Shown: positions 2,170 through 42,168, counted from the stretch's first letter. The stretch: DNA of 64,000 nt from Candidatus Megaera polyxenophila (GCF_029982035.1 NZ_CP104167.1:65974-129973); one strand, 5' to 3'. Program-made: numbers and translations. The notes: a model not told the origin generated them from the sequence alone.

Positions 2170-2421
2170 TTAACCCACCAATTAAATACCCGACTTAGGC
2201 GGCATATTTTACTTCTTTCGCCTGAAATAATCTTTTGATATGTTCTGGGTTATTTTGCAGAGTCCTTAGGTAAGATTTTAAATTCCCTTGGAGTTCAGAT
2301 TTTGTAAGAGGTATATGTTTCCTATTTACATTTCTTTTTAAATCGTTGTTTAAATATTCATCCGGATTATGTTGCGGAGTATACGGAGGCAGAAAAAATA
2401 AAGAAATTTTCTTTTTATGCA
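2170..2421 (-). mobile_element. IS630-family element fragment: terminal 25-bp inverted repeat plus 3' end of transposase gene, truncated at 2421
   Basis: Identical to the 18914..19165 end of the full IS630 copy (TTAACCCACCAATTAAATACCCGAC...). Homology stops abruptly at 2421/2422, where group II intron-derived sequence begins. Confidence 0.8.
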
Positions 2422-5207: not shown

Positions 5208-5507
5208 ATGTCTAAAAAAGCGAAGCAATATAGTGCGACGGAAAAAACAAAAATTGTTATAGAAGCAATAAAAGCTGAAATGACAATAGCACAAATAAGC
5301 AGTAAGTACGGGGTTCATGCAACTCAAATACAAGCATGGAAAAAAAGAGGTATAGAAAATTTAGTTAGTGGTTTTCAAGTTAAGCCGGCAACAAAAGATC
5401 CAGACAATCAAGATTTGATAAAACAATTATATGAACAAATAGGACAGTTAAGCGTTGAGCGTGACTGGCTGAAAAAAAAATCTACATTGTTTGGACTTGG
5501 AAACTAG
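5208..5507 (+). CDS. IS3-family OrfA (HTH), A9 variant
   Basis: 99 aa, HTH-like. Ends after an A9 run at 5472..5480. Confidence 0.75.
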   Translation: MSKKAKQYSATEKTKIVIEAIKAEMTIAQISSKYGVHATQIQAWKKRGIENLVSGFQVKPATKDPDNQDLIKQLYEQIGQLSVERDWLKKKSTLFGLGN

Positions 5508-6333
5508 GAAAAGTATGATTGATAATAATTGTATAAATCTAAGCATTGTTAGGCAATGCGATCTACTTTTAATTAATAAATCTACTTATTATTACAAGGC
5601 AAAAGGAATAACTACAAGAGACTTAGAAATAATGAAAGTAATTGATGAAATCTATACAGAGCATCCGTATTTCGGGGCCAGAAGAATGTCCAAGCATCTT
5701 GTACCGTTTGGAATTGTTATTGGTCGCAAAGCGGTAAGTCGTTATTACGGAATAATGTCAATAGAAGCCATTTATCCTAAAATGAATTTAAGCAAGCGCA
5801 ACCAAGCTCATAAGGTATATCCTTATCTTTTAAAAGGCGTTGAAATTACTAAGACAAATCAGGTATGGAGCACCGATATAACTTATATTAGAATGGCACA
5901 AGGATTTGTATATCTAGTAGCCATTATTGATTGGTTTAGCCGTTATATTCTGAGCTGGAAGGTTTCTATTAGCTTAGAAAGTGATTTTTGCATCGACGCA
6001 CTAGAAGAAGCCCTAGAAAAGCACGGTCAACCTGAGGTTTTTAATACCGATCAAGGTTCTCAATTTACGTCAAAAAATTTCATCTACGAACTTGTTAAAC
6101 GTGAAATCAAGATTAGCATGGACGGTAAAGGTAGGGCTTTAGATAATGTATTTATTGAAAGATTTTGGCGTTCATTAAAACAAGAAAAAATATATTTGAT
6201 AATTTTAAATACTGTCAAGGAGGTAAAAAATGCTATAACAGATTACATAACTTTTTATAATAGTAAAAGGATGCACCAATCCTTGGAATATTTAACTCCA
6301 GAACAGGTGTATTTAACAAAAATTATTGGCTAA
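5491..6333 (+). CDS. IS3-family OrfB (DDE integrase core, rve)
   Basis: 280 aa, rve-type DDE core (WSTDITYI...NTDQGSQFTS...E). Lies in the +1 frame relative to orfA in this copy. Confidence 0.8.
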   Translation: MDLETRKSMIDNNCINLSIVRQCDLLLINKSTYYYKAKGITTRDLEIMKVIDEIYTEHPYFGARRMSKHLVPFGIVIGRKAVSRYYGIMSIEAIYPKMNLSKRNQAHKVYPYLLKGVEITKTNQVWSTDITYIRMAQGFVYLVAIIDWFSRYILSWKVSISLESDFCIDALEEALEKHGQPEVFNTDQGSQFTSKNFIYELVKREIKISMDGKGRALDNVFIERFWRSLKQEKIYLIILNTVKEVKNAITDYITFYNSKRMHQSLEYLTPEQVYLTKIIG

Positions 6334-7346: not shown

Positions 7347-8462
7347 TTGATCATGAAATGGAATTGGCAGCAGAAGGATTGGCCTAGTTTTTCATATGAT
7401 ACAACAAAGCTTTTAGAGCTTGAACAACAGCTATTACATCAGTCGGGAATATTATTTGGAGCATATAAGCATTTAACTAGCGAAGATAAAGAATGGTTGA
7501 AGGTCGAGCTTATTAGTAATGAAGCTCTCAAAACATCAGAAATAGAAGGTGAATATTTAGATAGAAGTAGCTTGCAATCATCTATTAGACGTTATTTTGG
7601 GCTTCAGGTAGATACCAGTAAAATTAAGCCTGAAGAAAATGGTATCGCAGCTTTAATGATTGATTTATACAAGACTTACAATACAGCTCTCACTCATGAA
7701 AAATTATATGATTGGCATAGTAAATTATTGGGCCATAGAAACGACTTAGAATATATAGGTTGTTACAGAGGGGGTGAAGAGCCAATGCAGGTTATTTCTG
7801 GCCGTATTGGAGAGCCTACAATACATTTTGAAGCCCCTCCATCTGAAAGGGTAAAAAATGAAATGGAGATTTTTATTGAATGGTTTAATGAATCACAAAA
7901 TAGATTTAGAAAAACTGTTCCAACTCTAACTAGAGCTGGGATCACACACCTTTATTTTGAATCTATACATCCCTTTGAGGATGGCAATGGCCGTATTGGT
8001 AGGGTTTTATCAGAAAAAGTGCTTGCGCAAGGATTAAGGCAACCCACACTATTAGCTTTATCTACAATTATCAACAAGTATAAAAAGCGGTACTATGATG
8101 CTTTAGAAAGAGCAAATAAAAATAATGAAATTACAGAATGGCTTATATATTTTGCAAATACTATATTAGAAGCACTAGCTTATACTCAAAAAGCAATAGA
8201 GTTTTTGATAGAAAAAGCAAAAATATTAAATAGGCTAGAAGGAGAGCTTAATAGCCGTCAGAAGAAGGCATTACTTAGAATATTTGAAGCAGGGCACGAG
8301 GGTTTTCAAGGTGGTTTAAGTGCAAATAATTATATAAGTATAACTAAAGCTACCCAACCTACAACTACAAGGGATTTAGTTGATTTAGTACAGAAGGGAG
8401 TATTATACAAAATAGGCGAACGCAAACACACTCGGTATTACCTCAACTTTACGAGGAATTGA
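7347..8462 (+). CDS. Fic-family protein (AMPylase) with N-terminal inhibitory helix and C-terminal winged-helix region
   Basis: Fic motif HPFEDGNGRIGR. Inhibitory-helix motif TSEIEG, (S/T)xxxE(G/N) class. Confidence 0.85.
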   Translation: MIMKWNWQQKDWPSFSYDTTKLLELEQQLLHQSGILFGAYKHLTSEDKEWLKVELISNEALKTSEIEGEYLDRSSLQSSIRRYFGLQVDTSKIKPEENGIAALMIDLYKTYNTALTHEKLYDWHSKLLGHRNDLEYIGCYRGGEEPMQVISGRIGEPTIHFEAPPSERVKNEMEIFIEWFNESQNRFRKTVPTLTRAGITHLYFESIHPFEDGNGRIGRVLSEKVLAQGLRQPTLLALSTIINKYKKRYYDALERANKNNEITEWLIYFANTILEALAYTQKAIEFLIEKAKILNRLEGELNSRQKKALLRIFEAGHEGFQGGLSANNYISITKATQPTTTRDLVDLVQKGVLYKIGERKHTRYYLNFTRN

Positions 8463-8805: not shown

Positions 8806-9310
8806 ATGAGTAAGAGCGATCAAGAAAAAATAAAGCAAGCGGTAGATTTGTTAATAGATAAAGACACAGATTTAACAAGTTTTTTTGCTAAAGACGGGAT
8901 GTTAAAAGAGCTTACAAAAAATCTATTTGAAAGGGCTTTAAAAGCAGAAATGGACGAGCATCTTGGCTATAGCAGGTATGGTAGAGGAGAAACGGAGAAC
9001 AGCAGGAATGGGAGTATGCCTATTCAAAATTGGGGAGAAGCTATGGCCCATTTTTTGATAAAATTTGAGGGTAGAATTTAAGTGGAGTAGTTGAGATTTA
9101 ATCTCCTTTGTTTTAATGAGTCTGTAATATAGTTTGTGTAAGTTGCAAAAGGGTATAGTAGAAAATACTATAAAAAAGCAACTTAAACACAGAGGAAAAA
9201 ATGGCTAAAAAATTAGCAGAAAAAGAAGTAGATATAAATACTAAATTAGTCGAAGAATTACTATCAAAAGCAGATCCATCTGAATTATTTGGTCGCGGTG
9301 GATTATTTAA
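8806..9310 (+). pseudogene. IS256-family (Mutator-like) transposase N-terminal fragments, truncated by IS91-like insertion
   Basis: LKELTKNLFERALKAEMDEHLGY...NSRNG motif, plus a second partial N-terminal repeat at 9201..9310 that runs into the IS91-like end. Confidence 0.45.
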
Positions 9311-11118
9311 TAGTATAGGAAATTCAAAATTTGCAACCAGAAAAATCATCAATCAGCTTTTTAAAAATTCGTTTAATAAATATGTAGTTACCAGCCACAA
9401 TATTAGAAATTATCAACACTTTTACAAAAATCTCTGCCAGAATCTATCTAAAAATAGGTTCAGTTTTACAAATTATGTGGCCAAGACGTGAAAGAAGTGT
9501 TCGCCATAATGATGTTATCTAGGCGTTGATAATAATTCATTGGTTCTTATTAATAACAATGGCGGAGATAAACCGTAATAAACTTGCCGCAGATTCATAC
9601 ATTTATTGCAATTATAGCAAAACAGAGGATCTATTTTAAAATTCAACCAAATCATTAATCTCCAACTAATGAGCTTAGTTTTCTTATGAACGATTTGATT
9701 AATTGCCTTATATACGATAGGTAATTGTACGCCCCTAGTTCTATTAGATAAAAAACCGTAATACCTAATCATTCGAAAATAACGATCTGGTATATGCATA
9801 ATCAGACTAGCTATGAACTGCATCACGGGCATAGTTATGCGATCAATTGTATTATTATAGTGATCAAGAAATTTAAACGTTACCTGCTTTCCGTCGTAAT
9901 TTTCTATTCTTGTCTCGGAAATAGGGGGCGTTTTATATACCGCCCTAAATATTCTATGTTGCGTTTATGATCATCCGATGGTTTTTGTAAATAAACATAC
10001 CAACTGATTTCGTATAAACTACTCATCCAGTTATTAAAATTCTCAGCATTTTGATATGCGGACGGCAACTTCAAATTACTTGAGATATATTGAAAGCGAA
10101 ATAACTCAAGGACTCTATGTCTCCACATTTTTTTAATAGGTTCGGCAGGAAAAAATAATTTTTGCCACTTGCCTTTGCTATTTATACCGCCGCAAGTAAC
10201 CGATAAATGGATATGAACATTGCGTTTTAAATCTCTACCGAAAGTGTGTAAGGCAGTAAATATACCAACCACAAGATCTTCTTTGTAGCTATCTCCTTAA
10301 TAATTCCTGCTGCAATACCGGAAATCAATCCAAACAGATCACGATTGAGCCAAAATATCGGCCATAAAGAGTCCGGCATTGTAAATGTAATGTGCTGCCA
10401 TCGTGTTTTTGGTAGAACATTGCTAGCCTTACTCACCCATTGATCCGTTTGTTTCTTACCACAACGAGAACAAAACCTACCTTTACAGCTGAATGCTACC
10501 GATTTATTGCGGTTACAATCACGGCAGCTATAACGTTTAAATCCTAAATATTTCGTTCCACACGATATAACTTTAGTGACGTTGAAAATAATGCCGTATC
10601 TTAGCTTGCCGTATTTTTTAGCGAAATCGAGACCAATTACCACGGTCTAGAAAAATATGTTTTATAGATATTCCTTTACCGACTATTTCCATAAATTACT
10701 TATAGTTAATGTTTTCTTACCAAGGAATCTTTCTTCCTTTGCGTTCTAAATCAAATTCTTTACAATCAGGGCAATAGTAAACAGAATTATACTTATGATT
10801 GGGAGATATTTTTCGCAACATTATCCAGAAAGCCTTGGCTATTTCCTTATCTCCTTCGGAAAAAATCTTTTGATCCTGCTGTAAGGAATTGCTTGCTCTT
10901 TAGAAATGGCCTTAAGAGTTTTTACCGCTAATTCATTGACCAAATGCTGCTCAGAGTGCAAGTTACTCATAACTCAATTATATATTATCTTATGTATGTC
11001 TAACATTCAGTCTTTATAACTCAAGTTAAAACAAATCAAATACCAGTATTATAATCCTCCATAAATATTTATCGGTCAAGGGTATCTTCTTTTAAGCTGC
11101 CACCGATAGGTGGCTTAT
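9311..11118 (-). mobile_element. IS91-family (rolling-circle, HUH Y2) element, copy 1, degraded
   Basis: Same 1.8-kb unit as 28050..29850. Ends GGCTTAT|CTTG (plus strand 11112..11122) and TAGTATAGG (9311). Extra 1-bp deletions in the transposase (10262 region) and in the small ORF. Confidence 0.8.
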
Positions 11119-11155
11119 CTTGAAAATATTTTAATAAAAATAAACCAATTAATTT

Positions 11156-18913: not shown

Positions 18914-20042
18914 TTAACCCACCAATTAAATACCCGACTTAGGCGGCATATTTTACTTCTTTCGCCTGAAATAATCTTTTGATATGTTCTGGGTTATTTT
19001 GCAGAGTCCTTAGGTAAGATTTTAAATTCCCTTGGAGTTCAGATTTTGTAAGAGGTATATGTTTCCTATTTACATTTCTTTTTAAATCGTTGTTTAAATA
19101 TTCATCCGGATTATGTTGCGGAGTATACGGAGGCAGAAAAAATAAAGAAATTTTCTTTTTATGTTTCCGAGTCCATATTTGTACTTTTTTGCTATGATGA
19201 ACCTTGAGATTATCTAGGATTAAGAAGATTTTTTTCTTGGAGTATTTTACCAACCTCCGTAAAAATTCTATAAATACATTTGTTTTTAGTGTCTCTTCGT
19301 ACAGCATAAACCTTAGCTTACCGTTATTTGTAACAGTGGATATCATGTTTATACTAAATCTCTTCGATTTATGAATCACAACAGGGGTTTTTCCTTTTAA
19401 AGAATAGCTTTGTAATACCTGACACTCTTGTTTTATCCCTACTTCGTCGCACCAATGTATTTCTGCCTTTTCATATTCTGCTTGCTTGGCTATTGACGGA
19501 TATTCTTCATCTAACCAAAATTGAACCCTTTTGGGTTGCTGCTCATATGCTAACTTCTTTGGCTTTTGTGCAGTATACCCCCATCTTCTTAAATATTCGC
19601 CTATTGTACTTAGGGGAAGAAAAAATCCACAATGTTTTTTGATGAGTGCATTAACTGATTTTCTTGACCATAATGCTGATTTGATATTGTGATCTTCTGG
19701 TCTAGAGATATTTACGTACCCTTGTATTATTTTACTTTGATCTTCGGTTATAAGCCTTTTCTCTCCTATCTTTCTACCTCTTAACTTCCCACTAATTGCG
19801 TACTTGTCGCCTCTCTTTTCCCTCCTTACCCATTCATTTACTGTCTGGCGACTCACTCCTATTAATTCACCTACCGACGATTGACTCTCTCCTCTTTTTA
19901 CTAGTTTTAGAGCAATCTTTCTCATCGACGCTTGTGCGCTTATTGATAATTTCCTAAAATCTTCACTTTTTGACATTATTGCATTATACAAATTCCTTCC
20001 TTCTTGGCAATAGTTATGTCGGGTATTTAATTGGTGGGTTAA
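18914..20042 (-). mobile_element. IS630-family element, copy A (1129 bp, 25-bp inverted repeats, TA duplication)
   Basis: Inverted repeat TTAACCCACCAATTAAATACCCGAC at both ends; TA at 18912..18913 and 20043..20044. Confidence 0.9.
18939..19976 (-). CDS. IS630-family transposase (about 346 aa from MSKSEDF)
   Basis: Intact ORF identical to the 56263..57300 product. The ORF-track N-terminal extension beyond the element is spurious. Confidence 0.8.
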   Translation of the reverse strand: MSKSEDFRKLSISAQASMRKIALKLVKRGESQSSVGELIGVSRQTVNEWVRREKRGDKYAISGKLRGRKIGEKRLITEDQSKIIQGYVNISRPEDHNIKSALWSRKSVNALIKKHCGFFLPLSTIGEYLRRWGYTAQKPKKLAYEQQPKRVQFWLDEEYPSIAKQAEYEKAEIHWCDEVGIKQECQVLQSYSLKGKTPVVIHKSKRFSINMISTVTNNGKLRFMLYEETLKTNVFIEFLRRLVKYSKKKIFLILDNLKVHHSKKVQIWTRKHKKKISLFFLPPYTPQHNPDEYLNNDLKRNVNRKHIPLTKSELQGNLKSYLRTLQNNPEHIKRLFQAKEVKYAA

Positions 20043-20429: not shown

Positions 20430-21866
20430 ATGTTCAAAGATAGTTATACTAGGTATAAAATTATCCAACCTTTTTTTGAAGATGGAGTATCCATTAGCAG
20501 TATATCATCTGCTCATAACATTCCACTACGCACACTACAAAGATGGTGTAAAAATTATAGGATCAAAGGGCTTGAAGGGCTCAAACAACAACAGCGTTCT
20601 GATAAAGGGAAATATCGTAATATACCTCAAGAGCTCTTACATTTTATAGAAGGACTTGCTTTAAAACAACCTAAATTATCAATTGCTACAATATGCGACA
20701 AAGCTAATGAAATCGCAAAAATATTAAATGAACAAAGTATAAAATATAATACAGTTCTCAAAATCATAAATAACCTACCAAAAAGCATGATAGTTTTAGC
20801 GCAAGAAGGCGATAGAATTTACGAAGAGACTTTTGATTTATTATATAGACGCGATGCAAACCATCCTAATGAAATTTGGCAAGCTGATCATACACTACTA
20901 GACATATATTTAATTGACAGTGACGGTAAGCCAGTAAGACCGTGGTTAACTATTATTATAGATGATTATAGCAGAGCAATAGCGGGTTATTATCTTTTTT
21001 TTGAAGCTCCTTCAGCATTACAAACAGCTCTTGCACTTAGACAGGCCATATGGAGTAAAAGTGAACTTGAATGGCAAATATGCGGTATTCCTGAGCAATT
21101 ATATGTTGATCACGGGAGTGACTTTACGTCTAAACATATAGAAATGGTATGTGCAGATTTGAAAGTTCAACTTATTTTCTCAAATGTGGGAAAACCTAGA
21201 GGACGTGGCAAGATAGAACGGTTTTTTAATACAGTTAATCAAAAACTACTTTGCAGGTTACCTGGCTATATAACTAAAAATCATCTAATAGAAACTAAAT
21301 CTTTATTAACGCTCACTCAATTTGAAATTCAACTGAAAAATTTTTTACTTAAATATTATCATAAGAAACCTCATAGTATAACCAAAGAATCACCTGTAGA
21401 TCGATGGAGTCACAATGGTTTTTTACCACAACTTCCTGCATCTTTAGAGAAATTAGATTTATTGTTATTAACTGTAGCAAAACCTAGGAAAATTCACCAG
21501 GATGGCATTTATTTTCAAAGCTTACGTTATCTAGATCCAGTATTAGCAGCATATGTCGGAGAATCAATCGTGATTCGCTATGATCCAAGAGATGTAGCAG
21601 AGATTAGAGTTTTCTATCAAAATAAATTCCTTTGTCGTGCTATTTGCCAAGAACTTGCTGGAGAAGTTATTAGTTTAAAAGATATAATTCATGCACGCAA
21701 CCAAAGAAAAAAAGAATTAAAAGAAGTTATTGCTAAGCGCAGATCATTAGTAGATCAGTTATTAGGCGTCCAACCTACTGCCTCTGGTGAATCAAGCCCC
21801 TCAAATATAGTAAAACAAGAGGCTCCTGTTAAGATTACAAAGTTAAAATTATATGAAAACGATTGA
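20430..21866 (+). CDS. tniA: TniA/Tn552 p480-like DDE transposase (Mu/Tn7 superfamily), 478 aa
   Basis: N-terminal HTH and rve-type core (WQADHT...IIIDDYSR...E). Confidence 0.75.
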   Translation: MFKDSYTRYKIIQPFFEDGVSISSISSAHNIPLRTLQRWCKNYRIKGLEGLKQQQRSDKGKYRNIPQELLHFIEGLALKQPKLSIATICDKANEIAKILNEQSIKYNTVLKIINNLPKSMIVLAQEGDRIYEETFDLLYRRDANHPNEIWQADHTLLDIYLIDSDGKPVRPWLTIIIDDYSRAIAGYYLFFEAPSALQTALALRQAIWSKSELEWQICGIPEQLYVDHGSDFTSKHIEMVCADLKVQLIFSNVGKPRGRGKIERFFNTVNQKLLCRLPGYITKNHLIETKSLLTLTQFEIQLKNFLLKYYHKKPHSITKESPVDRWSHNGFLPQLPASLEKLDLLLLTVAKPRKIHQDGIYFQSLRYLDPVLAAYVGESIVIRYDPRDVAEIRVFYQNKFLCRAICQELAGEVISLKDIIHARNQRKKELKEVIAKRRSLVDQLLGVQPTASGESSPSNIVKQEAPVKITKLKLYEND

Positions 21867-22725
21867 TGATGACGGTGAAGACCAATTTTTAGTTACCAAA
21901 GAGTATAAACGTTTTAGAGAATTTTGTGAAGCTTGCATTCGTTATAAATATATTGGTTTATGTTATGGGCCGCCAGGTGTCGGTAAGACTTTATCAGCTA
22001 AATATTATAGTAGATGGGGTTTAATAGAAGAATATTCCAGATTGGATTATCAACGTAGTCAGCCAACTAAACCTGTACCTTATGAACTTAAAGAGCATGA
22101 TACAATCTTTTATACTGCAGAAGTTGCAAATAGCCCTTCAAGGATTTTAAGTTCATTAAATGCCTGCGTAAATAAAGTGCAGCAAGTTAGATACGACGCT
22201 AAGTTTTGTCAATCAGTAAAAGAAAAAGAATATCAGGAAAGTGAATACAATCACAAGAGAATAGAAGACTATATTAACCATCTTTCCAACCCTTTTATCA
22301 AGCTATTAATTATTGATGAATCAGATAGGTTAAAATTGACTTCTTTAGAGCAAATCAGAGATTATTATGACCAGAAAGACTGCGGGTTAATCTTGATAGG
22401 AATGCCGGGTATGGAAAAGAAACTATCCAGATATGCCCAATTATACTCTAGAGTGGGCTTTGTACATGAATTTAAGCCGCTATCTAAAGACGAAATGTTA
22501 TTTATTATGAGCAATTATCTTACGAAATTTGGTATTAATATTGACCCAAAAGATTTTACAGACCATGAGACTATAGCTGCTATTATGCAAGCTACAAGGC
22601 ATAATTTCAGATTGCTCAATAGGTTGCTGAAACAAATTGAGCGTATAATGAAAGTTAACATGGTAAATACTATAACAAAGGAAATAGTACTTGCAGCAAG
22701 AGAATGCTTGGTTATTGGAATATAA
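21853..22725 (+). CDS. tniB: TniB/Tn552 p271-like AAA+ ATPase, 290 aa
   Basis: Walker A GPPGVGKT; Walker B LLIIDESDRL; overlaps the tniA end. Confidence 0.75.
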   Translation: MKTIDDDGEDQFLVTKEYKRFREFCEACIRYKYIGLCYGPPGVGKTLSAKYYSRWGLIEEYSRLDYQRSQPTKPVPYELKEHDTIFYTAEVANSPSRILSSLNACVNKVQQVRYDAKFCQSVKEKEYQESEYNHKRIEDYINHLSNPFIKLLIIDESDRLKLTSLEQIRDYYDQKDCGLILIGMPGMEKKLSRYAQLYSRVGFVHEFKPLSKDEMLFIMSNYLTKFGINIDPKDFTDHETIAAIMQATRHNFRLLNRLLKQIERIMKVNMVNTITKEIVLAARECLVIGI

Positions 22726-22772: not shown

Positions 22773-24109
<1,337 letters not shown>

Positions 24110-26539: not shown

Positions 26540-27487
26540 TCATTTTAACTTTTCTATTTCTTCAACAGTTAAGCTGGTAAATTCTACTATTTCTTCCATA
26601 GGTTTATTTTTTATTAGCATAGCTTTGGCGATTTCTATAGCTTTTTTGGTTTCTCCTTTCTCAATACCTCTAGCTTCACCGATAGAGATGCCTTCCTGTT
26701 TACCGATGGAGATACCTTGAACAATTCCCTCTTCCTTAGCTTTCTCTGTAGCTTTTTTTAAAGTATTAGCCTCTATTCTTAGCCATTTAAGGTGATCTTC
26801 GTAAAGTTCCCTTTCCTCTTCGCTAAAGTTCAACACATCTAATACATGCAAAGCTTTCTTCAGTGTGTCGTTATCCAGTTCCTTCGGTAATCGATCTGCT
26901 GTTAGTAAATCGTGCCTAGTTAAAAAAGCAACCCATATATCAAGGGCATTCTTGGTTTTTGCAACTATATCCTGTAATTCCTCATTTGAATCGCTAGTAA
27001 ATTTATTCAGCTCTATAGTATGTAATTCCAAATCCTTAAAATAGGCAAAACCGTTATCTTTTTCCGTAATATGGAAAACATTATGATAATTCTTTGCTTC
27101 GACTATTGAGGTGAAATTTAAAATATGAATGCCGATAGCTTTTGAAAGCTTGGAGTAATCTTCGGCTACTTTTAGCTGCTCCGTGTATAATTTTGCCCAG
27201 TAATACAAGGCTCGCTTATCATAGTCTGCCTCATCGCTGATCTGAATTTCAATGTTAAATCTTTTGCCGTCTATACCTTTTGCTTTAATATCGAGTATCG
27301 ATAATTTGTCCTGTCTGAAGTTTTTAGGATTATAGGGATTCAGTAAAGTAATATCTTCTACCTGATCATCTTGACCAACGATAGAGTTTATAAGAGAAAT
27401 AAGTAAATCCTTATTCTCTTCTACTCCGAAGATTTTCTTGAAGGCCAAGTCAACTCGAGGTGATATTTTTTCCATAATCACTATCAT
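26540..27487 (-). CDS. Rpn/YhgA-like PD-(D/E)XK nuclease family protein (transposase-like)
   Basis: N-terminus DLAFKKIFG; D...E.Q core (LDIKAKG...NIEIQ); 315 aa. Confidence 0.65.
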   Translation of the reverse strand: MIVIMEKISPRVDLAFKKIFGVEENKDLLISLINSIVGQDDQVEDITLLNPYNPKNFRQDKLSILDIKAKGIDGKRFNIEIQISDEADYDKRALYYWAKLYTEQLKVAEDYSKLSKAIGIHILNFTSIVEAKNYHNVFHITEKDNGFAYFKDLELHTIELNKFTSDSNEELQDIVAKTKNALDIWVAFLTRHDLLTADRLPKELDNDTLKKALHVLDVLNFSEEERELYEDHLKWLRIEANTLKKATEKAKEEGIVQGISIGKQEGISIGEARGIEKGETKKAIEIAKAMLIKNKPMEEIVEFTSLTVEEIEKLK

Positions 27488-27592: not shown

Positions 27593-28039
27593 CTACAAAG
27601 CTACATTCCAAATAATCTGTATCTTTTGTAAATAAGCAAATAAAGCAGATTCTGTTAAGTTACCTTGATCTAAAATTTCATAAGCTTTCGTTAAAAGGTT
27701 AAGTTCTCTAGGAGTAACAGTCTGTTGTTCTTGATTTTGTTTATATCTACTATGCGCAGCTTCACCATTTTCAGCTATATTGTGCATTTCCCTAGTGCGT
27801 ATTTGTATTTCAACAGGTAATCCATATGAACCTAAAAGAATAACAGTATGCAGGGATCGATAACCATTAGTCTTTGGATTGTCAATATAATCTCTATACT
27901 TTTCTGGTATTACCTTGTAAATTTCCTGAATGAGTTTTAGTGTTGTATAGCATTCGTCTTCTTCCCTTACTATAATTCTAAAGCCAACAATGTCAGTTAG
28001 TTCTTCAATCTTAACTGATTTTCTAGTTAATTTTTGCAA
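27593..28039 (-). CDS. RelA/SpoT-family (p)ppGpp synthetase domain fragment protein
   Basis: GYRSLHTV...PVEIQIRT..MH..AE.G.AAH motifs. 148 aa only. Start abuts the IS91-like end. Confidence 0.55.
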   Translation of the reverse strand: MQKLTRKSVKIEELTDIVGFRIIVREEDECYTTLKLIQEIYKVIPEKYRDYIDNPKTNGYRSLHTVILLGSYGLPVEIQIRTREMHNIAENGEAAHSRYKQNQEQQTVTPRELNLLTKAYEILDQGNLTESALFAYLQKIQIIWNVAL

Positions 28040-28188
28040 GATAAGCCACCTATCGGTGGCAGCTTAAAAGAAGATACCCTTGACCGATAAATATTTATGG
28101 AGGATTATAATACTGGTATTTGATTTGTTTTAACTTGAGTTATAAAGACTGAATGTTAGACATACATAAGATAATATATAATTGAGTT

Positions 28189-28443
28189 ATGAGTAACTTG
28201 CACTCTGAGCAGCATTTGGTCAATGAATTAGCGGTAAAAACTCTTAAGGCCATTTCTAAAGAGCAAGCAATTCCTTACAGCAGGATCAAAAAGATTTTTT
28301 CCGAAGGAGATAAGGAAATAGCCAAGGCTTTCTGGATAATGTTGCGAAAAATATCTCCCAATCATAAGTATAATTCTGTTTACTATTGCCCTGATTGTAA
28401 AGAATTTGATTTAGAACGCAAAGGAAGAAAGATTCCTTGGTAA
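28189..28443 (+). CDS. IS91-family accessory small ORF (84 aa, CxxC zinc ribbon)
   Basis: YYCPDCKEF. Conserved across copies. Confidence 0.5.
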   Translation: MSNLHSEQHLVNELAVKTLKAISKEQAIPYSRIKKIFSEGDKEIAKAFWIMLRKISPNHKYNSVYYCPDCKEFDLERKGRKIPW

Positions 28444-28516
28444 GAAAACATTAACTATAAGTAATTTATGGAAATAGTCGGTAAAGGAATATCTATAAAA
28501 CATATTTTTCTAGACC

Positions 28517-29646
28517 GTGGTAATTGGTCTCGATTTCGCTAAAAAATACGGCAAGCTAAGATACGGCATTATTTTCAACGTCACTAAAGTTATATCGTGT
28601 GGAACGAAATATTTAGGATTTAAACGTTATAGCTGCCGTGATTGTAACCGCAATAAATCGGTAGCATTCAGCTGTAAAGGTAGGTTTTGTTCTCGTTGTG
28701 GTAAGAAACAAACGGATCAATGGGTGAGTAAGGCTAGCAATGTTCTACCAAAAACACGATGGCAGCACATTACATTTACAATGCCGGACTCTTTATGGCC
28801 GATATTTTGGCTCAATCGTGATCTGTTTGGATTGATTTCCGGTATTGCAGCAGGAATTATTAAGGAGATAGCTACAAAGAAAAATCTTGTGGTTGGTATA
28901 TTTACTGCCTTACACACTTTCGGTAGAGATTTAAAACGCAATGTTCATATCCATTTATCGGTTACTTGCGGCGGTATAAATAGCAAAGGCAAGTGGCAAA
29001 AATTATTTTTTCCTGCCGAACCTATTAAAAAAATGTGGAGACATAGAGTCCTTGAGTTATTTCGCTTTCAATATATCTCAAGTAATTTGAAGTTGCCGTC
29101 CGCATATCAAAATGCTGAGAATTTTAATAACTGGATGAGTAGTTTATACGAAATCAGTTGGTATGTTTATTTACAAAAACCATCGGATGATCATAAACGC
29201 AACATAGAATATTTAGGGCGGTATATAAAACGCCCCCTATTTCCGAGACAAGAATAGAAAATTACGACGGAAAGCAGGTAACGTTTAAATTTCTTGATCA
29301 CTATAATAATACAATTGATCGCATAACTATGCCCGTGATGCAGTTCATAGCTAGTCTGATTATGCATATACCAGATCGTTATTTTCGAATGATTAGGTAT
29401 TACGGTTTTTTATCTAATAGAACTAGGGGCGTACAATTACCTATCGTATATAAGGCAATTAATCAAATCGTTCATAAGAAAACTAAGCTCATTAGTTGGA
29501 GATTAATGATTTGGTTGAATTTTAAAATAGATCCTCTGTTTTGCTATAATTGCAATAAATGTATGAATCTGCGGCAAGTTTATTACGGTTTATCTCCGCC
29601 ATTGTTATTAATAAGAACCAATGAATTATTATCAACGCCTAGATAA
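28517..29646 (+). CDS. IS91-family HUH Y2 transposase, two overlapping frames joined by a -1 shift at CGCCCCCT (about 29233)
   Basis: Zn-binding N-terminus CxxC...CxxC; HUH HIHLSV. The second frame supplies PISETRIENYDGKQVTF...RYYGFLSN (tyrosine motif). Confidence 0.7.
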
Positions 29647-29875
29647 CATCATTATGGCGAACACTTCTTTCACGTCTTGGCCACATAATTTGTAAAACTG
29701 AACCTATTTTTAGATAGATTCTGGCAGAGATTTTTGTAAAAGTGTTGATAATTTCTAATATTGTGGCTGGTAACTACATATTTATTAAACGAATTTTTAA
29801 AAAGCTGATTGATGATTTTTCTGGTTGCAAATTTTGAATTTCCTATACTATAAAATAAATAAAACAGAAGGAACA

Positions 29876-33454: not shown

Positions 33455-34768
33455 ATGCCTATAGAAAATATTAGTTTTTCTCAAAAACAAGAAAGATTAT
33501 TTGGTGAAAAATTATCTATACAACTAAATCGCAAAAACAAATTATATAAACTGAGAGATTTGGTAAATTGGTCTGAACTTGAAGCGCTGGCATTAGCTAA
33601 GGTTGAAATCAAGCAATTCGGTAGAAATAAGAAGGATCATAGAGTAATGCTAGGACTATCAATGCTGCAAGCTATGTATAACGGTTCTGATTCGTTTACG
33701 GAGGAAGAATTAAAGGAAAATATATATTGGCAATATTTTTGCGGCTATGAGTATATGCAACAAGATATTGACGTATCGGAGGCGACTATACGTAGATTCC
33801 GCAATGCTCTGGGAGAGGAAGGATATAAAGAGATTCTAAAAGAGCTTTTGCGTATAGGACTGAAGGTCGGAGCACTCAAAAAAAAAGACTTGGAATCGGC
33901 GATTATAGATACGACTGTACAGATTAAGAATATCAAACATCCACATGACGTACATTTAATGGAGACCGCAAGAGCAAAAGTAGTAGATCTCTGTAAACGA
34001 CTTGGTATTTCGCTTAACGAGACATACGCCAAGAGTTTTAAATATAAGACGATCAAGCTTTGGAAGTACAAGGAAGATAGTAAAGCAAGGCAACGTAGAA
34101 AAATAATGATAAGCTTAAAAGTCCGCTTAGGTAGGTTGATCCGTATATGCTGGAGAGGTATAGAAAAATCAAAATTAGAACTATCTGCTGAGGATAGCGC
34201 CATTTTTACGAGAGTTAAAAATATTCATGCCCAGTCTGTGCTTAAGAAAAAGGACAAGGATATTTATAAAAAAGAGCATAAGATAGTCTATAGCTTTCAT
34301 GCTCCGGAGGTAGAGTGTATCGGCAAGGGTAAAATGAATAAACCTTACGAATTTGGTAACAAAGTCGGGATTGCAGTAAGCGGCCGAGGCAACTTTATTC
34401 TTGGGGTTAAATCTTTTCACGGTAACCCCTACGACGGACATACTTTAGATCAAACGGTATCGGAGCTGCGCAAGCTAAGTCCGGAGACTAGCAAAATTTT
34501 TGTAGATCTTGGTTACACCGGCCATAACTTCAAAGAAAAAGGCAAGGTTTTTACCGCCAAGACCAAGAAAGCTTTATCAACCGATGACAAAAAGATGCAA
34601 AAGCGGAGAAGTGCAATTGAACCGATAATAGGTCATCTAAAGAATTTTGGTCGTATGGGTAGAAACTACCTTAAGGGAATAATTGGAGATATCGTTAATC
34701 CGCTTATCTCTGCCGTTGGCTTGAATTTGCGTAGAATCACTAATATTCTCAAAGAATCCACCGCATAA
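33455..34768 (+). CDS. IS5-family DDE transposase (437 aa)
   Basis: DDE_Tnp_1-like motifs (IIDTT..., ...DLGYTG..., ...EP.IG.LK). Element ends not resolved. Confidence 0.65.
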   Translation: MPIENISFSQKQERLFGEKLSIQLNRKNKLYKLRDLVNWSELEALALAKVEIKQFGRNKKDHRVMLGLSMLQAMYNGSDSFTEEELKENIYWQYFCGYEYMQQDIDVSEATIRRFRNALGEEGYKEILKELLRIGLKVGALKKKDLESAIIDTTVQIKNIKHPHDVHLMETARAKVVDLCKRLGISLNETYAKSFKYKTIKLWKYKEDSKARQRRKIMISLKVRLGRLIRICWRGIEKSKLELSAEDSAIFTRVKNIHAQSVLKKKDKDIYKKEHKIVYSFHAPEVECIGKGKMNKPYEFGNKVGIAVSGRGNFILGVKSFHGNPYDGHTLDQTVSELRKLSPETSKIFVDLGYTGHNFKEKGKVFTAKTKKALSTDDKKMQKRRSAIEPIIGHLKNFGRMGRNYLKGIIGDIVNPLISAVGLNLRRITNILKESTA

Positions 34769-36517: not shown

Positions 36518-36682
36518 GGGAAAAAGCTATCAATTCAGCTAAATACTAACGGTAAATATAAGCTAGTGGACACTGATGATCAGACTTAAAGTGTCTAAAT
36601 CAGATTTGCAGAAAATTATCTCCTATTAGTGATTAACAACTTATGAAAAATAATTATTATAAAACCCCTTAAACATCAACAA

Positions 36683-38491
36683 GATAAGCCACCTATCGGT
36701 GGCAGCTTAAAAGAAGATACTCTTGACCGATAAATATTTATGGAGGATTATAATACTGGTATTTGATTTGTTTTAACTTGAGTTATAAAGACTGAATGTT
36801 AGACATACATAAGATAATATATAATTGAGTTATGAGTAACTTGCACTCTGAGCAGCATTTGGTCAATGAATTAGCGGTAAAAACTCTTAAGGCCATTTCT
36901 AAAGAGCAAGCAATTCCTTACAGCAGGATCAAAAAGATTTTTTCCGAAGGAGATAAGGAAATAGCCAAGGCTTTCTGGATAATGTTGCGAAAATATCTCC
37001 CAATCATAAGTATAATTCTGTTTACTATTGCCCTGATTGTAAAGAATTTGATTTAGAACGCAAAGGAAGAAAGATTCCTTGGTAAGAAAACATTAACTAT
37101 AAGTAATTTATGGAAATAGTCGGTAAAGGAATATCTATAAAACATATTTTTCTAGACCGTGGTAATTGGTCTCGATTTCGCTAAAAAATACGGCAAGCTA
37201 AGATACGGCATTATTTTCAACGTCACTAAAGTTATATCGTGTGGAACGAAATATTTAGGATTTAAACGTTATAGCTGCCGTGATTGTAACCGCAATAAAT
37301 CGGTAGCATTCAGCTGTAAAGGTAGGTTTTGTTCTCGTTGTGGTAAGAAACAAACGGATCAATGGGTGAGTAAGGCTAGCAATGTTCTACCAAAAACACG
37401 ATGGCAGCACATTACATTTACAATGCCGGACTCTTTATGGCCGATATTTTGGCTCAATCGTGATCTGTTTGGATTGATTTCCGGTATTGCAGCAGGAATT
37501 ATTAAGGAGATAGCTACAAAGAAAAATCTTGTGGTTGGTATATTTACTGCCTTACACACTTTCGGTAGAGATTTAAAACGCAATGTTCATATCCATTTAT
37601 CGGTTACTTGCGGCGGTATAAATAGCAAAGGCAAGTGGCAAAAATTATTTTTTCCTGCCGAACCTATTAAAAAAATGTGGAGACATAGAGTCCTTGAGTT
37701 ATTTCGCTTTCAATATATCTCAAGTAATTTGAAGTTGCCGTCCGCATATCAAAATGCTGAGAATTTTAATAACTGGATGAGTAGTTTATACGAAATCAGT
37801 TGGTATGTTTATTTACAAAAACCATCGGATGATCATAAACGCAACATAGAATATTTAGGGCGGTATATAAAACGCCCCCTATTTCCGAGACAAGAATAGA
37901 AAATTACGACGGAAAGCAGGTAACGTTTAAATTTCTTGATCACTATAATAATACAATTGATCGCATAACTATGCCCGTGATGCAGTTCATAGCTAGTCTG
38001 ATTATGCATATACCAGATCGTTATTTTCGAATGATTAGGTATTACGGTTTTTTATCTAATAGAACTAGGGGCGTACAATTACCTATCGTATATAAGGCAA
38101 TTAATCAAATCGTTCATAAGAAAACTAAGCTCATTAGTTGGAGATTAATGATTTGGTTGAATTTTAAAATAGATCCTCTGTTTTGCTATAATTGCAATAA
38201 ATGTATGAATCTGCGGCAAGTTTATTACGGTTTATCTCCGCCATTGTTATTAATAAGAATCAATGAATTATTATCAACGCCTAGATAACATCATTATGGC
38301 GAACACTTCTTTCACGTCTTAGCCACATAATTTGTAAAACTGAACCTATTTTTAGATAGATTCTGGCAGAGATTTTTATAAAAGTGTTGATAATTTCTAA
38401 TATTGTGGCTTGTAACTACATTTTATTAAACGAATTTTCAAAGTTTTGATTAACAATTTTTCTGGTTACAAATTTTGAAATTCCTATACTA
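36683..38491 (+). mobile_element. IS91-family element, copy 3 (small ORF frameshifted)
   Basis: CAAG at 36679..36682. One-base deletion in an A run of the small ORF (36832..37056). Transposase frames at 37159..37899 and 37971..38288. Confidence 0.85.
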
Positions 38492-38587
38492 CAAGATAAG
38501 CCACCTATCGGTGGCAGCTTAAAAGAAGATACCCTTGACCGATAAATATTTATGGAGGATTATAATACTGGTATTTGATTTGTTTTA

Positions 38588-39716
38588 TTAACCCACCAAT
38601 TAAATACCCGACTTAGGCGGCATATTTTACTTCTTTCGCCTGAAATAATCTTTTGATATGTTCTGGGTTATTTTGCAGAGTCCTTAGGTAAGATTTTAAA
38701 TTCCCTTGGAGTTCAGATTTTGTAAGAGGTATATGTTTCCTATTTACATTTCTTTTTAAATCGTTGTTTAAATATTCATCCGGATTATGTTGCGGAGTAT
38801 ACGGAGGCAGAAAAAATAAAGAAATTTTCTTTTTATGTTTCCGAGTCCATATTTGTACTTTTTTGCTATGATGAACCTTGAGATTATCTAGGATTAAGAA
38901 GATTTTTTTCTTGGAGTATTTTACCAACCTCCGTAAAAATTCTATAAATACATTTGTTTTTAGTGTCTCTTCGTACAGCATAAACCTTAGCTTACCGTTA
39001 TTTGTAACAGTGGATATCATGTTTATACTAAATCTCTTCGATTTATGAATCACAACAGGGGTTTTTCCTTTTAAAGAATAGCTTTGTAATACCTGACACT
39101 CTTGTTTTATCCCTACTTCGTCGCACCAATGTATTTCTGCCTTTTCATATTCTGCTTGCTTGGCTATTGACGGATATTCTTCATCTAACCAAAATTGAAC
39201 CCTTTTGGGTTGCTGCTCATATGCTAACTTCTTTGGCTTTTGTGCAGTATACCCCCATCTTCTTAAATATTCGCCTATTGTACTTAGGGGAAGAAAAAAT
39301 CCACAATGTTTTTTGATGAGTGCATTAACTGATTTTCTTGACCATAATGCTGATTTGATATTGTGATCTTCTGGTCTAGAGATATTTACGTACCCTTGTA
39401 TTATTTTACTTTGATCTTCGGTTATAAGCCTTTTCTCTCCTATCTTTCTACCTCTTAACTTCCCACTAATTGCGTACTTGTCGCCTCTCTTTTCCCTCCT
39501 TACCCATTCATTTACTGTCTGGCGACTCACTCCTATTAATTCACCTACCGACGATTGACTCTCTCCTCTTTTTACTAGTTTTAGAGCAATCTTTCTCATC
39601 GACGCTTGTGCGCTTATTGATAATTTCCTAAAATCTTCACTTTTTGACATTATTGCATTATACAAATTCCTTCCTTCTTGGCAATAGTTATGTCGGGTAT
39701 TTAATTGGTGGGTTAA
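38588..39716 (-). mobile_element. IS630-family element, copy E
   Basis: Inverted repeats and TA duplication (38586..38587 and 39717..39718). The uninterrupted target TTTTAACTTGAG is seen in other IS91-like copies. Confidence 0.9.
38613..39650 (-). CDS. IS630-family transposase
   Basis: Identical to copy A. Confidence 0.8.
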   Translation of the reverse strand: MSKSEDFRKLSISAQASMRKIALKLVKRGESQSSVGELIGVSRQTVNEWVRREKRGDKYAISGKLRGRKIGEKRLITEDQSKIIQGYVNISRPEDHNIKSALWSRKSVNALIKKHCGFFLPLSTIGEYLRRWGYTAQKPKKLAYEQQPKRVQFWLDEEYPSIAKQAEYEKAEIHWCDEVGIKQECQVLQSYSLKGKTPVVIHKSKRFSINMISTVTNNGKLRFMLYEETLKTNVFIEFLRRLVKYSKKKIFLILDNLKVHHSKKVQIWTRKHKKKISLFFLPPYTPQHNPDEYLNNDLKRNVNRKHIPLTKSELQGNLKSYLRTLQNNPEHIKRLFQAKEVKYAA

Positions 39717-41430
39717 TAACTTGAGTTATAAAGACTGAATGTTAGACATACATAAGATAATATATAATTGAGTTATGAGTAACTTGCACTCTGAGCAGCA
39801 TTTGGTCAATGAATTAGCGGTAAAAACTCTTAAGGCCATTTCTAAAGAGCAAGCAATTCCTTACAGCAGGATCAAAAAGATTTTTTCCGAAGGAGATAAG
39901 GAAATAGCCAAGGCTTTCTGGATAATGTTGCGAAAAATATCTCCCAATCATAAGTATAATTCTGTTTACTATTGCCCTGATTGTAAAGAATTTGATTTAG
40001 AACGCAAAGGAAGTCCTTGGTAAGAAAACATTAACTATAAGTAATTTATGGAAATAGTCGGTAAAGGAATATCTATAAAACATATTTTTCTAGACCGTGG
40101 TAATTGGTCTCGATTTCGCTAAAAAATACGGCAAGCTAAGATACGGCATTATTTTCAACGTCACTAAAGTTATATCGTGTGGAACGAAATATTTAGGATT
40201 TAAACGTTATAGCTGCCGTGATTGTAACCGCAATAAATCGGTAGCATTCAGCTGTAAAGGTAGGTTTTGTTCTCGTTGTGGTAAGAAACAAACGGATCAA
40301 TGGGTGAGTAAGGCTAGCAATGTTCTACCAAAAACACGATGGCAGCACATTACATTTACAATGCCGGACTCTTTATGGCCGATATTTTGGCTCAATCGTG
40401 ATCTGTTTGGATTGATTTCCGGTATTGCAGCAGGAATTATTAAGGAGATAGCTACAAAGAAAAATCTTGTGGTTGGTATATTTACTGCCTTACACACTTT
40501 CGGTAGAGATTTAAAACGCAATGTTCATATCCATTTATCGGTTACTTGCGGCGGTATAAATAGCAAAGGCAAGTGGCAAAAATTATTTTTTCCTGCCGAA
40601 CCTATTAAAAAAATGTGGAGACATAGAGTCCTTGAGTTATTTCGCTTTCAATATATCTCAAGTAATTTGAAGTTGCCGTCCGCATATCAAAATGCTGAGA
40701 ATTTTAATAACTGGATGAGTAGTTTATACGAAATCAGTTGGTATGTTTATTTACAAAAACCATCGGATGATCATAAACGCAACATAGAATATTTAGGGCG
40801 GTATATAAAACGCCCCCTATTTCCGAGACAAGAATAGAAAATTACGACGGAAAGCAGGTAACGTTTAAATTTCTTGATCACTATAATAATACAATTGATC
40901 GCATAACTATGCCCGTGATGCAGTTCATAGCTAGTCTGATTATGCATATACCAGATCGTTATTTTCGAATGATTAGGTATTACGGTTTTTTATCTAATAG
41001 AACTAGGGGCGTACAATTACCTATCGTATATAAGGCAATTAATCAAATCGTTCATAAGAAAACTAAGCTCATTAGTTGGAGATTAATGATTTGGTTGAAT
41101 TTTAAAATAGATCCTCTGTTTTGCTATAATTGCAATAAATGTATGAATCTGCGGCAAGTTTATTACGGTTTATCTCCGCCATTGTTATTAATAAGAACCA
41201 ATGAATTATTATCAACGCCTAGATAACATCATTATGGCGAACACTTCTTTCACGTCTTGGCCACATAATTTGTAAAACTGAACCTATTTTTAGATAGATT
41301 CTGGCAGAGATTTTTGTAAAAGTGTTGATAATTTCTAATATTGTGGCTGGTAACTACATATTTATTAAACGAATTTTTAAAAAGCTGATTGATGATTTTT
41401 CTGGTTGCAAATTTTGAATTTCCTATACTA

Positions 41431-42168
41431 GAACATAAAGTAATAGACCAGAAGAAAGAACTAACTAAGCTATACGAAATTAAAAATGAGCTTTTACGAA
41501 ACCTGGAACATGAAACACGCACCCCAATTACCGGTATTACTAGTCTCGGACAGGTTTTATGGGCTAACTACGATAAATTTAATGAAGAACAAAGGCGTAA
41601 TGCAACCAAAGATATTGCTGATAGTTCCGAAAGATTAACCAGTTTAGTAAATAATCTTATTGATTTATCAAAACTTAATAATATTAACTACCAGTTAAAT
41701 AAGTCTCAAGTAAACTTATCTGATTTAGTTTATAAAAGGTTAGAACTATGTAAAAAACTGTATATTCAGGATAAAGATCAAGAAGACTTATGGTTTAACT
41801 TACAAATAGATAATGAATTAACCGCTTTATGTGATCAGTACTACATTTCACGTACTATCGATAATATCATAGTAAATGCTATTCAATACTGTAAGCAGGG
41901 AACAATTACAATTGAGCTGAAACCGGAGCAAAACCACACTATTGTTTTTAGTGTAAAAGATGAAGGAATAGGCATTCCAAAAGATGAACTATTTGAAGTT
42001 TTTGAACCATTTACCGTTAGTTCAAATACTAAAACTCCTGCAGGTGGAAGAGGTATAGGGCTTGCCTTATCTAAAAAAGTTATTGAAGCACATAACGGTC
42101 AGATATGGGCTAAACAGAACCAAGACAAAGGGGTTACTGTTGCATTTACTTTGACAATTAATGACTAA
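41431..42168 (+). pseudogene. Sensor histidine kinase, 5'-truncated by IS91-like insertion
   Basis: HisKA H-box HETRTPITGI and HATPase_c N/G boxes. The first 14 aa of the listed ORF derive from the IS end. Confidence 0.6.

Follow-up and report, generated by a model that had tools for sequence, protein, structure and literature searches.

A shared frame break at a C5 run and a conserved upstream frame switch in an IS91-family transposase gene of Candidatus Megaera polyxenophila

An IS91-family element in five copies

We analyzed a 64,000-nucleotide (nt) stretch of the Candidatus Megaera polyxenophila genome (NZ_CP104167.1:65974-129973; hereafter the window, numbered from its first letter), in which an insertion sequence (IS) with a transposase gene, tnpA, split over two reading frames is found in five copies. 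In the copy on which the initial annotation was centered (copy B below), the main-frame open reading frame (ORF; 28517-29257, plus strand) opens at a GTG and encodes 246 amino acids, comprising a zinc-binding domain, the HUH motif and both tyrosines, before ending seven codons past a frame break at a run of five cytosines (C5). The C-terminal frame (29236-29646, plus strand; 137 amino acids) contains the motifs RYYGFLSNR and DPLxCxxC and corresponds to positions 248-355 of the NF033538 profile.

The conceptual fusion of the two frames matches NF033538 (IS91 family transposase) in a single stretch, with a score of 315.9 bits (3e-94; cutoff of 125 bits) over positions 3-355 of 356, and it also matches PF04986 (164 bits, one stretch) and PF14319 (73.6 bits). 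The 246-residue ORF accounts for profile positions 13-248 and the downstream piece for positions 248-355, so that the two meet at position 248 with no gap, and the fused protein aligns across the junction, as the initial annotation had proposed to check. The HUH motif is HIH (28946-28954, residues 160-162 of the fused protein) and aligns with H159-I-H of IS91, while YLGRY at 29210-29224 (Y248 and Y252 of the fused protein) aligns with Y249 and Y253 of the Escherichia coli IS91 TnpA (YFGSY, 249-253; reference WP_000937614.1, from plasmid NZ_CP122661.1), mutation of which abolishes TnpA activity in vivo (PMC5714925). Both motifs lie in the 246-residue frame, and the earlier statement that the tyrosine motif is supplied by the downstream frame was wrong; the family assignment made there is borne out by the NF033538 match and the aligned HUH and YxxxY motifs. 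Every sequence criterion tested places the element in the IS91 family, with only its target tetranucleotide apparently relaxed (see below). The C-terminal frame holds the family-invariant residues R310, Y311, D355, P356, C359 and C362. In an AF2 (AlphaFold2) model (predicted local distance difference test [pLDDT] of 83.7), residues 259-392 form a well-folded domain, joined via a low-confidence loop (254-258). A sequence search of the Protein Data Bank (PDB) returned no relative, and the HUH-nuclease and relaxase matches given by Foldseek were only weak (E about 0.01-0.05, template modeling [TM] score of 0.2-0.3).

A 51-nt string across the C5 site (GGTATATAAAACGCCCCCTATTTCC...) has exactly five matches in the window, against a shuffle expectation of 0, at 9891-9941 (minus strand), 29220-29270 (plus), 37862-37912 (plus), 40800-40850 (plus) and 62069-62119 (minus). 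A five-copy alignment placed these sites in five copies, A to E, of a single repeat of 1,812 to 1,814 bp. Because the five sites sit in copies of one repeat, their identity is, on the alignment, a matter of inheritance from one repeated element and not a coincidence of five separate events. Segmental duplication as the origin of the copies was ruled out, their flanks being unrelated except for the tandem of copies C and D. Copy B (28037-29850, plus strand; 1,814 bp, with boundaries from the alignment and from the relatives L002 and L007) carries only the shared lesion. The others are copy A (9311-11122, minus strand), with private 1-nt deletions in tnpA near 10279 and in the small upstream gene ORF1 near 10869; copy C (36680-38491, plus), with a private 1-nt deletion in ORF1 near 36992; copy D (38492-41430, plus), with a 6-nt deletion at the 3' end of ORF1 and an IS630-like element inside its left end; and copy E (61490-63302, minus), with an A instead of a C as its first base. 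Copies C and E form a 3'-end variant subfamily. In total, four of the five copies have private lesions beyond the shared one, and in B and E tnpA has no lesion other than the shared deletion. The split arrangement is common to all five, as the initial annotation had it; in copy A the 246-residue frame is itself broken by the second deletion. The IS630-like element in copy D (38588-39716) splits its left end, apparently with a TA duplication. At copy B, a RelA/SpoT-like ORF (27593-28039, minus strand) ends exactly at the left end of the element and may have been truncated by its insertion.

The left (terIS-like) end of the element reads CAAGATAA and is followed by a 6-bp hairpin (GCCACC-TATC-GGTGGC, 28045-28060), which lies 8 nt from the end, has DNA folding z scores of -2.5 and -2.35 on the two strands, and is kept across the related loci with a variable loop. 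In IS91, terIS has one subterminal palindrome (PMC13181058). The right (oriIS-like) end, ...TTCCTATACTA, has only a weak AT palindrome; in copy B this terminus and the flanking target TAAAATA occupy 29840-29857 (plus strand). No terminal inverted repeats were visible in copy B, and no target-site direct repeat was shared in the flanks of the five copies. The right-end flanks in the window (29851-29857, 38492-38498, 41431-41437, 9304-9310 on the minus strand and 61483-61489 on the minus strand) are CAAGATA, GAACATA (twice), TAAAATA and TTAAATA, and those of the clade as a whole follow NAANATA (CAAGATA, GAACATA, TAAAATA, AAATATA). GAAC or CAAG adjoins three of the five copies in the window and makes up 9 of the 30 flanks from the clade; the others are TAAA, AAAT and similar, all followed by ATA. 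This suggests that the target is a relaxed, longer and AT-rich form of the classical IS91 target, GTTC/CTTG when read on the other strand. Judged by their unlike ends, the lack of target duplication and the NAANATA flanks, the copies are true IS91-type insertions. NAANATA also resembles the element's own left terminus. Copies C and D stand head to tail, with the right end of one joined directly to the left end of the next (...CCTATACTA followed by CAAGATAAGCCACC...; 38484-38500), and the identical ori-ter junction was found inside four metagenome contigs (L008, L009, L097 and L113, the last with a period of 1,811 nt). Such junctions suggest tandem dimers, circular intermediates or an insertion beside the CAAG that opens the element, and they offer indirect evidence of rolling-circle transposition via single-stranded circles.

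Upstream of tnpA lies ORF1 (28189-28443, plus strand, with equivalents in copies A, C, D and E), which encodes a small CPxC protein of 84 amino acids and is called as a gene in L002 to L006. Homologs with 33-100% identity occupy the same place in clade and outgroup loci (33-42% in distant IS91-family loci), with the conserved motif FW..L....P.H.Y..V..CP.C..F.LE, and no family in Pfam or NCBIfam matches it. Homology to the Orf121 of IS91 was unsupported beyond the shared CPxC (BLASTP E of 0.006; hhalign probability of 6.7%), and ORF1 is a positional analogue of orf121, a gene said to be found in IS91 alone.

The frame break at the C5 run

In all five copies the break site reads AAA CGC CCC CTA TTT CCG, where one nucleotide is missing compared to in-frame relatives (CGA CCC CCT). 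In copy B the lesion, CG^CCCCCT, lies at 29231-29238 on the plus strand, with the C5 run at 29233-29237, and in the other copies the run is at 9924-9928 (minus strand), 37875-37879, 40813-40817 and 62102-62106 (minus strand). A -1 shift at the run gives KRPPISETRIENYDG, which fits the family profile without a gap, and reading one C twice gives ...GRYIKRPPISETRIENYDG... (...EYLGRYIKRPPISETRIENYDG...), the family-consensus KRPPIS junction. Thus, both the common -1 break and the junction peptide of a slip on CGC-CCC-C had been described correctly, the exact 51-nt string being present in every copy and the two pieces abutting at profile position 248.

To place the break among relatives, we compared the DNA of 40 related loci (68-99% amino acid identity) taken from encoding contigs, species-representative genomes and, by a protein-based scan, metagenomes. 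At the C5 site 39 of the 40 are in frame, with codons [CA]G[AC] CC[CTAG] CCT, and the first proline codon varies synonymously (CCC, CCT, CCA or CCG), so the C run is not conserved. The closest relatives read CGA-CCC-CCT or CGA-CCT-CCT. The Lake Erken Rickettsiales metagenome-assembled genome (MAG) carries a locus, L007, that has ca. 99.5% DNA identity to the window copies (seven differing positions over the element) and reads CGACCCCCT at the site; L088 and L089, at 99% amino acid identity, read CGACCTCCT, in frame. The contrast of alleles is CG-CCCCC in the window versus CGACCCCC. Measured against L007, the run still has five cytosines and it is the A in front of it that is gone; the deletion of this A is the only tnpA difference private to the window copies relative to both L007 and L001. 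A run of six cytosines, which the initial annotation had taken as the in-frame state, was not what the relatives have; they carry an A plus C5 (CGA CCC CCT) or CCT CCT. The protein database likewise holds intact ORFs of 375-378 amino acids with 70-97% identity, all with KRPPIS and in clusters of up to 226 members. The one related locus out of frame, L111 (metagenome contig Ga0172373_10001076, 44 kb), is 93% identical, truncated at its 5' end and decayed, and its run is broken differently (CGACCCC-T); this separate lesion at the same homopolymer appears to mark a mutational hot spot. Metagenome contigs scanned at the DNA level for either allele (CG[N]CCCCC in the exact context of the window) gave no match, and exact-sequence look-ups of the 246-residue ORF, of ORF1 and of the 105-residue C-terminal ORF returned no record.

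We consider the break to be an ordinary, recent 1-nt deletion that was spread by descent or conversion and not a recoding signal, with a probability of roughly 85%. The ancestor would have read AAA CGA CCC CCT ATT (K R P P I), and the loss of one base would have produced the AAA CGC CCC CTA now seen in all five copies. After the deletion, translation would stop seven codons on and the conserved 137-residue C-terminal domain would be lost, while the truncated product would keep the zinc domain, the HUH motif and both tyrosines; we infer a loss of transposase activity. The lesion would be common to the copies by descent from, or conversion to, one defective variant, whether by rolling-circle transposition with a trans-acting transposase, by conversion among the copies or by both, and the copies would now be decaying further.

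Recombination among copies is evident in their 3' block. The subfamilies {A,B,D} and {C,E} have 16 differences in the last 235 bp and one in the other 1,579 bp (Fisher P = 6e-14), and L007 is itself a mosaic of the two. Because this block is mosaic both between subfamilies and in L007, recombination or gene conversion among copies is demonstrated by the alignment, and it would be able to spread a lesion. As a route, gene conversion has no less support than mobilization in trans. The latter is possible because the IS91 TnpA works in trans, mobilizing mini-IS substrates from a second plasmid (PMC13181058), so that an intact copy could have mobilized a defective one. The decay is seen in the second tnpA frameshift of copy A, the frameshifts of ORF1 in A and C, its 6-nt deletion in D, and the splitting of D by the IS630-like element.

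The initial annotation had offered two explanations of the break, programmed frameshifting or slippage on the one hand and the amplification of a disabled copy on the other; the second, extended to homogenization among copies, agrees with all the observations, and the first is not supported. Programmed -1 frameshifting or transcriptional slippage at C5 as the normal mode of transposase expression, as in IS1 and IS3, would account for the exact consensus KRPPIS that a C_CC.C slip yields, for an arrangement common to five copies and for a second lineage, L111, out of frame at the same run. Nevertheless, it is unsupported because 39 of the 40 relatives, near-identical ones included, are in frame and the run varies among them as CCT, CCA and CCG; this majority of in-frame copies elsewhere had been named beforehand as the result that would refute programming. 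At the site there is no X_XXY_YYZ heptamer, only the C_CC.C tetramer, and the RNA downstream of the run showed no excess structure when folds of 64, 104 and 136 nt were compared with shuffles (z of -0.06, +0.31 and -0.50). The Shine-Dalgarno (SD)-like GGGCGG upstream is part of the YLGRY codons and is found in in-frame relatives too, the catalytic residues are in the upstream frame with no separate regulatory domain there, and the copies carry extra inactivating lesions. As to slippage by the polymerase, the run is not conserved and C5 is far too short for it to be efficient, a homopolymer of about 8 nt or more being required. We regard programming at this site as extremely improbable. A sequencing or assembly artefact, i.e., a systematic base-call error in the context GACCCCCT repeated in every copy, deserves slightly more credit and is still very unlikely. 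The same context would produce the same error, the resolution of five near-identical 1.8-kb repeats implies long reads, and most of the differences private to single copies are 1-nt losses in A runs; against this, three IS630-like copies are 100% identical over 1,129 nt with no indels, eight long ORFs (11.5 kb) with 121 homopolymers, among them A9, T8 and G6, contain zero frame breaks, the run keeps its length of five relative to L007 while the preceding A is missing, and an independent metagenome assembly, L111, has a real lesion at the same run.

A third alternative accepts the deletion and makes the copies attenuated instead of dead, a rare spontaneous -1 slip at CGC-CCC-C giving enough transposase. 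Such a slip would restore the wild-type sequence exactly, CCC is the rarest proline codon in the window (3.0 per thousand), tnpA of copies B and E has no other lesion, and there is precedent for a "savior indel plus low-level frameshifting" (PMC5009743). The expected rate argues the other way: unless a strong pseudoknot is present, C_CC.C tetramers stay close to background, and tetramers with no stimulator reach about 0.06% in E. coli (PMC4066793). So low a rate would be multiplied by that of the +1 step described below, itself only partial, and the copies gather further lesions. We judge this compensation unlikely, if less so than the two explanations above. Several points do weigh against reading the break as a simple deletion. 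The C_CC.C tetramer permits a P/A-site slip of -1 that restores the exact wild-type peptide, and a leaky full-length product is therefore conceivable. Since L113 carries CGC within the clade, the base lost may have been the A of CGA or, after an intermediate CGC-CCC-CCT, one of its cytosines. Breaks at one run in two lineages might reflect recurrent selection and not a hot spot. Finally, there is no intact copy within the 64-kb window, and a helper acting in trans thus has to be assumed. Taking the break as an ordinary deletion, the flagged split is of little importance, a defective insertion sequence copied or homogenized in an IS-laden symbiont genome, and the gene merits annotation as a pseudogene and not as a recoded gene.

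A conserved frame switch at the 5' end of tnpA

A second frame change, about 700 nt upstream of the C5 break, was missed in the initial annotation. An ATG-initiated ORF of 24 codons (MEIVGKGISIKHIFLDRGNWSRFR followed by a stop; 28468-28542, plus strand) overlaps the start of the main ORF in a frame one nucleotide behind it, and its first 23 codons correspond to the ancestral N terminus of the transposase. This 23-residue peptide is homologous to the N terminus of more distant single-ORF IS91 transposases (MEIVSG..IFLDNGNWWKFFLKH), which is in frame in ca. 70 outgroup loci (42-55% identity); all 40 clade loci covering the region retain the peptide, but in the other frame. The same 40 loci have an invariant TGG-NNN-CGA-TTT-[CT]. 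Unique sequences with the ATG number 27, and in none of them does the ATG frame contain a stop, against an average of 2.2 stops in the main frame. In the same 27 sequences, the ratio of nonsynonymous to synonymous polymorphism (pN/pS) for the 66 nt preceding the site is 0.23 in the ATG frame versus 1.23 and 1.11 in the other two, and for the 72 nt following it, 0.36 in the main frame versus 1.33 and 1.04. By positional entropy, the wobble phase steps by +1 at CGA-TTT-Y. The 23 added residues push the NF033538 match back from profile position 13 to position 3, and in the AF2 model a continuous helix (residues 10-27) crosses the junction between residues 23 and 24.

The conservation of the frame switch is plain from these comparisons, and we infer ribosomal slippage of +1 as its mechanism. 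The candidate site, CGA-TTT-C, is at 28531-28537 in copy B (plus strand), with equivalents at 10623-10629 (minus), 37173-37179, 40111-40117 and 62802-62808 (minus); the P-site UUU would re-pair as UUC, with C 28537 skipped. The shift has to take place beyond the main-frame TAG (28511-28513) and before the stop that comes right after TTT in L108, a stretch in which CGA-UUU-Y is the sole conserved shift-prone element. Synonymous positions of CGA and UUU never vary, whereas neighboring wobble positions do, and the main-frame codon after UUU shows synonymous variation (ACT, ACC, ACG). The A-site codon is CGC, CAC, CUC, UAC, UAU or UAG, with a stop in the A site only in L108, and most clade members have a zero-frame stop one codon past it. 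CGA, CGC and CAC are low-usage codons here (CGC 4.5 and CAC 4.8 per thousand). Around the site we found no conserved RNA structure (alifold, -1.3 kcal/mol) and no SD-like stimulator.

Other mechanisms were considered and rejected. Transcriptional slippage at the A6 run after the site fails because the T of the zero-frame TAA precedes the run, and this stop would persist however many A's were gained or lost. No re-pairing is available to a +1 shift at the CNC codon that has the stop in the A site, five lineages (L094, L101, L103, L107 and L114) have no stop there, and the synonymous variation of the codon after UUU also disfavors it. Internal initiation is insufficient as a general mechanism, since the open part of the main frame contains no ATG, GTG or TTG in L011-type loci, L105, L108 and L110.

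We lean, if only slightly, toward the view that this clade, which occurs in symbionts of the Rickettsiales type and in metagenomes from fresh and marine waters, makes its HUH/Y2 transposase via a programmed +1 shift at CGA-UUU-Y. An intact gene would need the shift to join the 23-codon N terminus to the main frame. Most ribosomes would terminate after the 24-residue leader, and a minority would shift, with tRNA-Phe re-pairing from UUU to UUC or UUU, and produce full-length TnpA, so that the site would throttle the transposase level. UUU-pyrimidine sites of this kind reportedly work as +1 sites in E. coli (Schwartz and Curran, in 1997). To our knowledge, the ISfinder summary of IS91 gives a single ORF and no frameshift, and +1 rather than -1 frameshifting is rare among bacterial IS elements. 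In some species, UUU_U stands in for CUU_U in the frameshift of release factor 2 (RF2) (PMC5009743). The literature searched contained no description of recoding in IS91-family or other rolling-circle elements. If the +1 shift is true, IS91-type rolling-circle elements would join the mobile elements that ration their transposase by recoding, and CGA-UUU-Y would be a compact natural +1 site, easily tested in reporters. Gene callers start these transposases at an ad hoc GTG, TTG or internal ATG and so miss the true N terminus.

Genomic surroundings and comparison with known systems

Mobile-element debris fills the window (1-64000), giving it the look of a Rickettsiales amplified genetic element, and TrbI, TraC, TraG and ParA are also encoded. 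IS630-like (DDE_3) elements are represented by four full or near-full copies and one fragment (38588-39716, 18914-20042, 56197-57325 and 22983-24109 on the minus strand, and 2170-2419), three of the copies being 100% identical; besides the one in copy D, another interrupts a traC-like conjugation gene (55163-56152 and 57331-58971). In the two IS3-family copies (5208-6333 and 53890-55016), orfA and orfB overlap at an A9 run (TGAAAAAAAAATC, 5471-5479), which, unlike the C5 site, is likely a slippage or -1 frameshift site. Other features are a group II intron reverse transcriptase (2415-3926), a Fic protein (7347-8462), a Tn7-like TnsB/TnsC pair (20430-22725), a PD-(D/E)XK transposase (26540-27487), an IS5/IS1182-like transposase (33455-34768) and a RickCE-domain autotransporter (47065-48777). 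The nearest IS relatives are in the Lake Erken Rickettsiales MAG and Candidatus Megaera venefica.

The closest known system is IS91, with its relatives IS801 and IS1294. The likeness extends to the single-stretch NF033538 match, the PF14319 and PF04986 matches, the residue-for-residue alignment of HUH and YxxxY, the unlike ends with a subterminal hairpin at the end upstream of tnpA, the absence of a visible target duplication, the right end adjoining GAAC/CAAG (GTTC/CTTG on the other strand) in three of five copies, and a small ORF upstream of tnpA comparable to orf121. The transposase in the window differs in having only 34% amino acid identity to that of IS91, and its clade in having an N terminus in another frame that needs a +1 shift, what looks like a longer and AT-rich target (NAANATA), and Rickettsiales-type symbionts as hosts.

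As to the 5' site, the +1 frameshift of RF2 (prfB) is similar in its ORF leader of ca. 24 codons, P-site re-pairing and, in most members, a nearby zero-frame stop. The 5' site differs from it in that only L108 has a stop in the A site (UUU_UAG), that no SD-like stimulator or conserved structure was found, and that the site has no known autoregulatory logic. The -1 frameshifting of IS1 and IS3 (A_AAA_AAG with a hairpin or pseudoknot) shares with the C5 break the two overlapping frames, the second at -1, but at the C5 site the heptamer, stimulator and conservation are lacking and the upstream frame already has the catalytic residues. The near-identical copies with shared lesions, private indels, nested insertions and mosaics resemble instead the decay and concerted evolution of insertion sequences in IS-rich endosymbionts, and the C5 lesion is a case of ordinary IS pseudogene decay, not of IS1/IS3-type recoding.

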